Shown: piece by piece, positions 9,441 to 31,366 of the stretch
Layout of the letters: each line of letters opens with the position of its first letter
Position numbering within the stretch: position 1 is the first letter of the stretch
NCBI RefSeq assembly: GCF_003334315.1
Contig: NZ_QOWR01000007.1
Reading direction: 5' to 3' (one strand)
DNA length: 64,000 bases
DNA from: Escherichia coli
Lineage (GTDB): Bacteria > Pseudomonadota > Gammaproteobacteria > Enterobacterales > Enterobacteriaceae
Translations under genes and position numbers: made by a program
Notes under the pieces: generated by a model
Told to the model about the DNA's origin: nothing
Databases searched by the model: none
What the model saw: only the letters and a program-made list of their open reading frames with translations

Positions 9441-10742
<1,302 letters not shown>

Positions 10743-10946
10743 TTCTGGTACGCCTGGCAGATATTTTGCCTGCCGGGCTAACAGTGTGATACATTGCTGT
10801 GTCGGTTAAGCCATTACGCTATCCGACACAGTGTTAAATCCTCGCTTTTTTCCTTCCCCGAACTGAAATAAATTAGCGACACAGCTTGTGGCTGGTTTAT
10901 CATCAATATAAATGTATTTTTTCCCGATTTCCCTTTTGAGGTTGAT

Positions 10947-13852: not shown

Positions 13853-13909
13853 TCAATACCCTCTTTAAAAGAAGAGGGTTAGATTGCTGACAAAATGCGC
13901 TTTGTTCAT

Positions 13910-14007
13910 GCCGGATGCGGCGTGAACGCCTTATCCGGCCTACATAATCACGCAAATTCAATATATTGCAGAGATCATGTAGGCCGGATAAACGTAGTGC
14001 ATCAGGC
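13910..14007. repeat. REP/BIME element (two inverted REP units) between rnr and rlmB
   Basis: gccggatgcggcgtgaacgccttatccggcctac ... gtaggccggataaacgtagtgcatcaggc. Confidence 0.7.
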
Positions 14008-14031
14008 AAAACGTAAACAACGAGTACATTA

Positions 14032-20714: not shown

Positions 20715-20749
20715 GTAGGCCGGACAAGGCGCTCGCGCCGCATCCGGCA
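20715..20749. repeat. REP element downstream of aidB
   Basis: gtaggccggacaaggcgctcgcgccgcatccggca. Confidence 0.65.
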
Positions 20750-21708: not shown

Positions 21709-22458
21709 ATGATTGAAATAGAATCACGCGAGCTGGCAGATATTCCCGTTCTTCATGCTTATCCTGTCGGACAAAAAGATACCCCGTTACCGTGCGCGAT
21801 TTTTTATCACGGCTTTACTTCGTCCAGTCTGGTGTATAGCTATTTTGCCGTTGCGCTGGCGCAGGCTGGTTTGCGGGTGATCATGCCGGATGCGCCCGAT
21901 CACGGTAGTCGTTTTAGTGGCGACGCAGCGCGGCGGTTAAATCAATTCTGGCAAATCTTGCTACAAAGTATGCAGGAATTCACTACTTTACGTGCGGCAA
22001 TAGCCGAAGAAAAGTGGCTGCTTGATGACCGTCTGGCAGTCGGTGGTGCGTCGATGGGCGCGATGACGGCACTGGGGATTACCGCTCGCCACCCCACGGT
22101 GAGATGTACCGCCAGCATGATGGGATCGGGCTATTTTACATCACTCGCCCGTTCACTGTTTCCACCGCTGATACCTGAAACGACAGCACAGCAGAATGAA
22201 TTCAATAACATTGTCGCGCCGCTGGCAGAGTGGGAAGCGACAAACCACCTGGAACAACTTAGTGACAGACCTCTACTGCTGTGGCATGGCCTCGACGATG
22301 ACGTTGTGCCTGCCGACGAATCACTACGTTTGCAGCAGGCCTTAAGCGAGACGGGACGGGATAAACTGCTAACCTGTTCATGGCAGCCAGGCGTGCGTCA
22401 CCGCATTACGTCTGAGGCGTTAGATGCTGCAGTGACATTTTTCCGCCAGCATCTTTAA
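21709..22458 (+). CDS. yjfP: alpha/beta-hydrolase esterase YjfP
   Basis: 249 aa, GxSxG nucleophile elbow (GGASMGAM). Confidence 0.88.
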
Positions 22459-23210
22459 ACACGCAGAATGCTGACCCCTTGCGCTTCCAGTTGTTGCAGG
22501 ATTTCCGGGTTAGCATTTTTGCCGGTGATCAGCATATCAATTTGATCGGCACGGCTAAAAAGCATTCCCGCGCGTTCGCCAATCTTACTGCTATCAACCA
22601 GTACCACCAGTTTCCCTACCACGCTCAGCATCTTCTGCTCTGCCATTGCCGTCAGCATATCGGTTTTATACAACCCTTCTGCTGTCAGTCCTTTGCCGCT
22701 GGTAAACATCCAGTGCCCGGCATAGAGACTGTTTTCGCTGCCCTGCGGGCTTAAAGTGATGGACTGACTTTTGTTGTACTGTCCGCCCATAATGATCACG
22801 CTGTCATGTTCTTGATCGATCAGGTAATTTGCCAGCGGTAGATAATTAGTGATGATTTGCACTGGCTTGCCACACATTTCCCGCCCAAGCAGAAACGCGG
22901 TGGAGCCGCAGTTGATGACTACGCTTTCGCCCGGATTAACCAGCTGCGAGGCCGCTTTAGCGATACGTACTTTTTCATCGTGATTCTGCGCCTGATGCAG
23001 ATTCATCGGCGTCCAGCGCGGGCGCTGTTGGGTAATAGCTTCTGCGCCATTGCGCACTTTTTTCAGTTTGCCGCTTTCGTCAAGTTTATTGATATCGCGT
23101 CGCGCAGTGGCAGGCGAAATTCCCAGACGCTCAACGACTTTCTCAACGGTCACAAAGCCCAATTGTGCGAGCATTTCCAGGAGGATTTGATGTCTTTGTG
23201 CTTCAGTCAT
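22455..23210 (-). CDS. ulaR: DeoR-family repressor of the ascorbate utilisation regulon UlaR
   Basis: 251 aa, N-terminal HTH, sugar-phosphate-binding C-domain; adjacent to ulaG. Confidence 0.92.
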
Positions 23211-23317
23211 GAGCTATTCCGATAAAATTTGATTTTTTTAGATGATATTTGAAATAGCCAGGAAATACTACGCCGGATAGCGCGAACTACTCCACGCTAT
23301 CCGGTATAAACGACAGA

Positions 23318-24382
23318 TTACAGGAATGACTTGAACGGCAGATCCGGTTCAATAGTGAAGCAATCATCGAAACCACGCGGATAGTGGTACTCGAAGTTGT
23401 CTTTATCCAACGGCCAGGTAAATTTGCCGCCAACCTGCCAGATAAACGGCTTGAAGCCATACTTCAGGCGATCTTTTTTCATCTCCCACAGCACGCGGAT
23501 CTCTTGCGGATCGGCCTGGAAGTTTGACCAGATATCGTGGTGGAACGGGATAACCACTTTCGCATTCAGGGCTTCACCCATACGCAGCATATCGGCGCTG
23601 GTCATTTTGTCGGTGATACCGCGCGGGTTTTCGCCGTATGAACCTAAAGCCACGTCGATCTGATGTTCGTTACCGTGCTTCGCATAATAGTTAGAGTAGT
23701 GGGAGTCGCCGCTGTGATACAGGGAGCCGCCAGGCGTTTTGAACAGATAGTTCACCGCGCGATCGTCCATGCCGTCCGGCAGTACGCCAGCCGCTTTTTG
23801 ATCGGCAGGCAGGGTGATCAGTGCAGTACGGTCGAAAGCGTCAAGCGCATGAATTTCAATGTCTTTCACTTTTACAACATCGCCCGGTTTGACCACGATG
23901 CAACGCTCTTTCGGTACGCCCCAGCCAATCCACAAATCCACACAGGTTTTCGGTCCAATGAACGGTACGTCATCAGCACAGTTCTGCATCACAGCAGCAG
24001 CGACGTTGACGTCGATATGATCGTTGTGATCGTGAGTCGCCAGTACCGCGTCGACCTGGCGAATCGCAAACGGATCAAGAACAAACGGGGTGGTGCGCAG
24101 GTTTGGCTGCAGTTTTTTCACGCCAGCCATGCGCTGCATTTGGTGACCCTGTTTCATTAACGGGTTACCGTGACTTTGTTTGCCAGTGCCGCACCAGAAA
24201 TCAACGCAAACGTTGGTGCCACCTTCCGATTTTAACCAGATCCCGGTGCAGCCAAGCCACCACATCGCAAATGTGCCAGGAGCGACCTGTTCTTGTTCAA
24301 TTTCTTCATTCAACCAGCTACCCCACTCCGGGAAAGTGCTCAGGATCCAGGATTCACGGGTGATACTTTTCACTTTACTCAT
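23318..24382 (-). CDS. ulaG: L-ascorbate-6-phosphate lactonase UlaG
   Basis: 354 aa from ATG 24382, metallo-beta-lactamase fold (HDHNDH). Confidence 0.92.
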
Positions 24383-26134
<1,752 letters not shown>

Positions 26135-31334: not shown

Positions 31335-31366
31335 AAAACGCCGACCAGTGGTCGGCGTTTTGCTTT
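31335..31366 (+). terminator. intrinsic terminator of the rpsF-rplI operon
   Basis: cgccgaccagtggtcggcg stem then ttttgcttt. Confidence 0.8.

Follow-up and report, generated by a model that had tools for sequence, protein, structure and literature searches.

A gene-end stem-loop without a proximal U run occupies the place of the ulaG terminator at the Escherichia ulaG-ulaR junction

The hairpin between ulaG and ulaR in Escherichia coli is an ordinary non-canonical gene-end stem-loop with a clear evolutionary origin. The explanation that we favour, with moderate confidence, is that it is a terminator-derived 3'-end stem-loop which has lost its U-tract, and which would act as a leaky terminator and as an exonuclease barrier, with some read-through into ulaR. 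The analysis concerns a window of 64,000 nt, to which all positions refer unless stated otherwise, and which is collinear with E. coli K-12 MG1655 from position 4395244 on. An earlier reading of the window, made from its letters only (the sequence-only reading), had described the hairpin as something other than a canonical terminator, and had proposed instead a REP-like or RNA-stability element or a protein site in the ulaR promoter. Its rejection of a canonical terminator stands, and of its positive proposals the one that agrees best with the data is a role at the RNA level, on the ulaG-sense strand, whereas membership of the REP family is unsupported and a protein site is disfavoured.

The two genes lie on the minus strand, and both their ends, together with the 107-bp gap that separates them, had been placed correctly (Table 1). 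The inverted repeat reported in the gap is present, with arms CCGGATAGCG (23273-23282) and CGCTATCCGG (23295-23304) of 10 nt each that are 100% complementary; the spacer between them is, however, 12 nt rather than the 13 nt first given, and the last position of the element is 23304 instead of 23305. The ulaG-sense RNA forms a stem of 14 pairs, 8 of them G-C, closed by the loop GUAG (centroid -25 kcal/mol, z -3.2 versus shuffles), and the G.U pairs of the inner stem are confined to this minus-strand RNA. An optional extension at the base adds 4 pairs, giving 18 pairs in the minimum-free-energy fold, so that the energy of the hairpin is about -24 to -26 kcal/mol with 14 to 18 pairs. The structure is unlikely to be accidental: perfect 10-nt inverted repeats with a loop of 3-20 nt occur at 5 places in the window versus approximately 1.1 hits per window in shuffles, a rarity that puts the chance of one falling within the 107-bp gap at about 0.002, and the segment of the gap from the ulaG stop to the ulaR promoter has z = -5.45 relative to shuffles. 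A permissive Rfam scan of 22800-23800 gave no match. At the other end of ulaR, the convergent genes yjfP (plus strand, end 22458) and ulaR (minus strand, end 22455) overlap by 4 nt (22455-22458), which leaves no intergenic space for a terminator of ulaR's own, and ulaR transcripts must therefore enter yjfP in antisense.

Table 1. Positions of genes, hairpin parts and promoter elements at the ulaG-ulaR junction
Feature	Position	Strand	Remarks
ulaR	22455-23210	-	ATG at 23210-23208
Candidate auto-operator TTTGATTTTTTTAGA	23228-23242	+	2-mismatch copy of TGTGATTNNTTTTGA; overlaps ulaR TSS; outside hairpin
Inferred -10 hexamer of ulaR, TATCAT	23242-23247	-	5/6 match to TATAAT; >95% conserved; 17-nt spacer to TAGTAT
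Tail CGUAGUAUUU	23263-23272	-	U-rich, interrupted, without a proximal U run
-35-like hexamer TAGTAT of inferred ulaR promoter	23265-23270	-	2 nt from hairpin; 5' edge of conserved block
Optional extended helix	23268-23309	-	UUAUA (23309-23305) with CGUAG (23272-23268); one A x C mismatch
Core-stem 3' arm, ulaG-sense RNA, CGCUAUCCGG	23273-23282	-
Inner hairpin	23283-23294	-	UGGA/UUCG, 4 more pairs (2 G.U); tetraloop GUAG
Core-stem 5' arm, ulaG-sense RNA, CCGGAUAGCG	23295-23304	-	starts 13 nt past ulaG stop
ulaG	23318-24382	-	stop codon TAA at 23318-23320
ulaA	start 24737	+

The hairpin resembles an intrinsic terminator in being a G+C-rich stem-loop on the sense strand soon after a stop codon, and differs from one in what follows the stem. 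In intrinsic termination the U residues closest to the stem count most, and the tail of the ulaG hairpin holds 1 U within its first 4 nt and 3 within its first 8. The statement that it has no U-tract was thus essentially right, although a permissive consensus scan (rule: 5/8 U, offset <=2) lists the site as terminator-like, a call that arises because five of eight bases are U once the count begins 2 nt past the stem. As this distal U-rich tail does pass the permissive scan, the actual efficiency of termination could exceed the level that we infer. Gene ends were scored by a terminator score d of the d'Aubenton-Carafa type (d'Aubenton Carafa et al. 1990), combined with the modern energies of ViennaRNA. 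On this scale the E. coli ulaG hairpin has d = -34 (-33.9) with nT 0.60, versus +7 to +40 for the five canonical terminator hairpins of the window, which serve six gene ends (hflC, rlmB, yjfY, shared rplI/yjfZ, ytfE). The score separated the window's known terminators correctly, and the ulaG hairpin is the most stable in the calibration on 21 gene ends of the window. Its d falls between those of the two scored REP hairpins, after aidB (-28) and yjfN (-40). Any intrinsic termination at the ulaG hairpin would be expected to yield 3' ends at about 23266-23263; the Term-seq supplements of PMC7815308 and PMC12207403 contain no 3'-end entries for ulaG or ulaR.

Two other gene ends of the window were noted. 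On the 3' side of purA (10742-10850, plus strand) there is a strong hairpin, CUGUGUCGG...CCGACACAG, without a U-tract (-17 kcal/mol, d = -35), which belongs with that of ulaG to one class of non-canonical gene-end stem-loops. Between rplI (plus strand) and yjfZ (minus strand), a perfect 12-nt palindromic hairpin at 31335-31361, CGCCGACC...GGUCGGCG, has the score of a terminator on either strand (d = +23 and +25) and appears to be a bidirectional terminator.

Comparison across the Enterobacteriaceae reveals where the Escherichia hairpin comes from. Retrieval via UlaR gave 80 loci, with ulaG upstream of ulaR in 77 of them. The segment from the stop codon to the promoter has a more stable fold than 95% of its shuffles in 71 of the 76 distinct sequences compared (median z -4.3), and the sequences of the hairpins differ from genus to genus; a preference of the fold for the sense over the antisense strand is not general across genera (32 versus 41). 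A canonical terminator follows ulaG in Salmonella, Citrobacter, Kosakonia, Cedecea and Pseudescherichia (for example, AUGCCGGGAUUACCCGGCAUUUUUU), with d from +29 to +35 in the first four genera and from +11 to +35 when Pseudescherichia is included. The proximal U run is absent after the hairpin in Enterobacter, Klebsiella and Leclercia, where d is -10 to -20, and in Escherichia, where it is about -34.

The ulaG terminator of Salmonella and Citrobacter (AUGCCGGG-loop-CCCGGCAUUUUUU) shares with the Escherichia hairpin its position past the ulaG stop and upstream of the conserved ulaR promoter block, a spacer of nearly equal length (105-107 nt), and a 5' arm AT(G/A)CCGG(G/A) that falls in the same alignment columns. 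By position and 5' arm, the hairpin is accordingly orthologous to a recognised terminator. The rest of the element differs: the loop, 3' arm and U-tract are replaced in the Escherichia alignment by unrelated sequence of similar length, the stem has 14-18 pairs compared with 8-10, and the score is -34 compared with about +30. Whereas the Salmonella/Citrobacter terminator lies 13-16 nt upstream of TAGTAT, the Escherichia hairpin abuts this hexamer. The aligned 5' arm implies that the Escherichia hairpin is a derived form of the ulaG terminator, and, given descent from a genuine terminator, the choice between a terminator and something else that framed the sequence-only reading is a false dichotomy, a point which that reading overlooked.

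Several loci in the collection are unusual in other respects. One from a record titled Edwardsiella hoshinae encodes a UlaR 90% identical to that of E. coli and has an enterobacterial promoter block and a Salmonella-type terminator, AUGCCGGAUCUCUCCGGCAUUUU, the top of whose stem is A-U in place of the G-C of Salmonella, i.e. a double compensatory change relative to Salmonella. In two Citrobacter spp. loci (L020 and L021, upstream of 2501) the promoter block before ulaR is kept, and what precedes the block is unrelated sequence, with no ulaG ahead, which points to a rearranged ula locus.

Of the competing explanations, the one that survives best is that efficient intrinsic termination persists at the hairpin, whose long stem would make up for its poor U-tract and keep ulaG transcription out of ulaR. 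We consider this unlikely. The 14 pairs with 8 G-C and the 5/8 U tail that satisfy the permissive scan, the positional orthology to canonical terminators and the UAUUU tail that the extended 18-pair fold would leave are all in keeping with it; the single U in the first 4 nt past the G-C stem, the nT and the strongly negative d, set against the positive scores of canonical terminators in the window and in sister genera, are not, and a transcription start 109 nt upstream of ulaR, such as that recorded in RegulonDB (see below), would be pointless were transcription to stop efficiently at the hairpin.

Variation within Escherichia was analysed in a set of nine distinct alleles from E. coli and the cryptic Escherichia lineages. 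The hairpin and its upstream spacer hold all of it, and from the hairpin to the ulaR ATG the alleles share the same 62 nt, save for one substitution in a single allele (L004). The sense fold is more stable than the antisense fold in all nine alleles (-22.7 to -26.1 versus -15.3 to -22.8 kcal/mol), and its energy is spread over 3.4 kcal/mol compared with 7.5 kcal/mol for the antisense fold. At all five variable stem positions the changes are compatible with wobble pairing (A-U to G.U, U.G to U-A, U.G to C-G and G.U to A-U); the K-12 allele CCGGGUAGCG, for instance, has a G.U pair in the sense RNA where the opposite strand has a C x A mismatch. In two alleles that lack 9 nt of the loop region, a hairpin of 14-15 pairs persists and its base acquires a G-C pair, and in two divergent alleles an A-to-G substitution turns the A x C mismatch of the extended helix into G-C. 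Over the alleles, 91.5% of cells are paired, versus 29-46% when the partners are slid. Covariation is not significant, with five one-sided and 0 double compensatory changes, and 500 of 500 shuffles reach the observed score. The structure of the hairpin is thus retained in Escherichia, and its covariation is without statistical support.

The resemblance to REPs, which reportedly protect the mRNA preceding them against 3' exonucleases and also attenuate transcription, was pursued with the nine bona fide REPs of the window (13909-13943, 13979-14008, 20715-20749, 46098-46127, 46140-46176, 51777-51806, 51842-51876, 60822-60856 and 60869-60906), several of which are paired as BIMEs; they lie in the rnr-rlmB, aidB-yjfN and paeA-msrA spacers and at two further sites. 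None of the nine is listed in the MG1655 RefSeq feature table, which holds no REPs at all, even at real ones, and the lack of any feature in that table for the ulaG-ulaR gap is therefore uninformative. The likeness is real as far as form is concerned. The ulaG hairpin shares with Y-type REPs and BIMEs (GCCGGATGCGGCG...CGCCTTATCCGGCCTAC) the outer stem CCGGAT...ATCCGG (in the REP form, GCCGGAT/ATCCGGC) and an extragenic, transcribed position at a 3' end, right after the stop codon; like REPs it combines a strong stem with the lack of a U-tract, and in d and stability it is comparable with the two REP hairpins scored. Three sites of the window match the pattern CCGGAT-N(5-30)-ATCCGG, namely two REPs and the ulaG hairpin, versus 0.08 expected by chance.

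Nevertheless, the hairpin is not a REP. A covariance model trained on the window's nine REPs scores it at 8.5 bits (E = 3, at noise level) versus 38-57 bits for the nine, and the comparison with the REP consensus recommended in the sequence-only reading gives 4 mismatches to the 14-nt tail CTTATCMGGCCTAC, where real REPs have at most 2. Its arms are perfectly symmetric, those of REPs asymmetric; its loop region is longer; and it reads ...TATCCGGC-GTAG where REPs read ...TATCCGGC-CTAC. We also rejected a dispersed family of which the hairpin would be a member: the region is single-copy in 5,420 of 5,426 complete E. coli genomes, with a median of 1 and a maximum of 2 places per genome by blastn at E <=10, a search that finds close copies only. 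That a degenerate or orphan REP (BIME) was inserted after ulaG, to act REP-like if at all, would account for the excess of the outer-stem pattern and for a d and a stem stability in the class of REP hairpins, and the same spacer does carry two GCCGGATA...TATCCGGC hairpins in Pseudocitrobacter; set against the consensus and copy-number results, and the homology of the 5' arm to an arm of the Salmonella terminator, we regard such an origin as improbable. The outer stem held in common with REPs means instead that the hairpin is REP-like in form, and probably in action, without belonging to the family. The Pseudocitrobacter spacers themselves (L054, L059 and L073) are 146-147 nt long, their two hairpins being in tandem and of REP-like form (at approximately 2360-2430 in L054 and L073); one of those in L059, TGCCGGATAGCGATTCGCGCATCCGGCA, is similar to an arm of the E. 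coli hairpin.

On the side of ulaR, the hairpin adjoins a 60-nt promoter and leader block (23211-23270, minus strand) that is strongly conserved over 75 distinct enterobacterial sequences. Conservation begins abruptly at TAGTA (from 23270 downwards), 2 nt past the hairpin, and continues to the ATG, whereas the hairpin columns are unconserved in the same sequences. The block contains TAGTAT, TTTCAAATATCATC (>95% conserved, and including TATCAT) and a run of seven A residues (A7), and we infer that TATCAT and TAGTAT constitute the ulaR promoter; a promoter scan called no ulaR promoter in the gap at the thresholds used. Two start sites are on record 80 nt apart: one, from Cappable-seq in EHEC, is at 23239, where the A7 run begins, 29 nt before the ulaR ATG, and the other, from RegulonDB v10.5, is at 23319, within the ulaG stop codon and 109 nt before the ATG (both PMC10469882 Table S5), while Mendoza-Vargas 2009 gives no ulaR TSS. 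The mapped EHEC 5' end lies just 3 nt past TATCAT; our guess is that transcription really begins a few nt deeper in the A7 run and involves slippage. We considered and rejected a leader helix, GCUAUUUC/GGAAUAGC, by which the Shine-Dalgarno sequence of ulaR would be sequestered, as no consistent covariation was seen by eye in 57 distinct sequences.

The start at 23319 is what gives some plausibility to a further explanation, i.e. that the hairpin belongs to the 5' UTR of an extended ulaR mRNA, which begins at the ulaG stop codon and which the stem-loop would stabilise or attenuate. The position fits, being 10 nt upstream of the base of the extended helix (23309) and 15 nt upstream of that of the core stem (23304). 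The sole TSS in the EHEC Cappable-seq data is, however, that 29 nt upstream of ulaR, which matches the conserved TATCAT, and upstream of 23319 neither inspection by eye (no good -10/-35) nor the promoter scan finds a promoter; the RegulonDB entry might be a processed 5' end, and we consider the 5'-UTR explanation very improbable. No less doubtful, and in our estimate highly so, is that the hairpin persists as a neutral relic and now has no function. The lack of significant covariation would be expected of a relic, but the hairpin is kept at its site in 71 of 76 distinct enterobacterial sequences, and its stability stays within 3.4 kcal/mol over nine alleles, deletions included, even though the hairpin and its upstream spacer are the only variable part of the gap.

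The likely operators of UlaR, a DeoR-family protein, lie elsewhere. The motif TGTGATTNNTTTTGA is present as two perfect copies in the ulaG-ulaA spacer (24421-24435 and 24653-24667, plus strand), approximately 232 bp apart and conserved in most genera, and it fits the 3' part of the UlaR sites predicted with the RegulonDB PWM; judged by their sequence, these copies are likely UlaR operators. Copies with two mismatches occur at 24499-24513 and 23228-23242 (plus strand), the latter being the sole match in the ulaG-ulaR gap and lying inside the conserved block, and no match at <=2 mismatches falls within the hairpin (23273-23304). The 23228-23242 copy is a candidate UlaR auto-operator, in agreement with a SELEX-chip UlaR site reported to be 'upstream of ulaR, downstream of ulaG' (PMC5934670). 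Ungapped comparison of 16-mers between the block upstream of ulaR and the ulaG-ulaA spacer found similarity at chance level. Scarcely credible, then, is the protein-site option of the sequence-only reading, namely that the hairpin DNA is a protein-binding palindrome of the ulaR promoter at about -34 to -69 from the TSS, whether the SELEX UlaR auto-operator or an activator site: it does lie directly upstream of the -35 region, but its sequence is unconserved outside Escherichia beside a conserved promoter block, its allelic changes are mismatches in DNA and wobble-compatible only in the sense RNA, a 9-nt deletion is tolerated, and the nearest match to the operator motif is outside it.

We return to the terminator-derived stem-loop as the best explanation. 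Its ancestor would have been an intrinsic terminator such as that found after ulaG in Salmonella and Citrobacter, of which the 5' arm was kept in place while, in Escherichia, the loop, 3' arm and U-tract would have been exchanged; that replacement is what has brought a longer stem to within 2 nt of the ulaR -35-like hexamer. The present hairpin probably has two roles. Firstly, it would support weak, leaky termination at UAGUAUUU, without a proximal U-tract. Secondly, it would be a barrier to 3'-to-5' exonucleases that sets and stabilises the 3' end of the ulaG mRNA, by a mechanism that would be akin to that of a REP-type 3' hairpin, with no REP identity. Some of the ulaG transcription that ascorbate induces would in that case continue past the hairpin into ulaR, the repressor gene.

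There is a parallel in stem-loops that are said to set mRNA 3' ends by stopping exonuclease trimming after termination further downstream. Those stem-loops are, like the ulaG hairpin, stable, without a U-tract and located at a gene end. Unlike them, the ulaG hairpin is just 62 nt from translated ulaR, a distance that makes a Rho-dependent stop just downstream unlikely, and read-through would probably run into ulaR itself. A bolder version of the terminator-derived explanation, which is possible but which we hold only tentatively, is that loss of the ulaG U-tract and fusion to the ulaR -35 region produced a deliberately leaky terminator. Ascorbate-induced read-through would, on that version, raise UlaR synthesis and add a negative feedback, coupled to induction, to the autorepression at 23228-23242, and the hairpin would set the ulaG:ulaR stoichiometry by protecting the ulaG segment alone from 3' decay.

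The overall results give an order for the ulaG-ulaR junction in which the hairpin is followed, after 2 nt, by the -35-like hexamer, the -10 hexamer, a TSS in the A7 run and the candidate auto-operator. The practical value of this is modest. Should read-through be substantial, UlaR levels in E. coli would go up on induction, which bears on quantitative models and on biosensor uses of the ula system. The boundary between the inducible gene and the repressor gene is built differently within the family, with a canonical terminator in Salmonella and Citrobacter versus a hairpin without a U-tract in Escherichia, Klebsiella and Enterobacter, and the locus is a small but clear case of terminator turnover in which structure has been retained.
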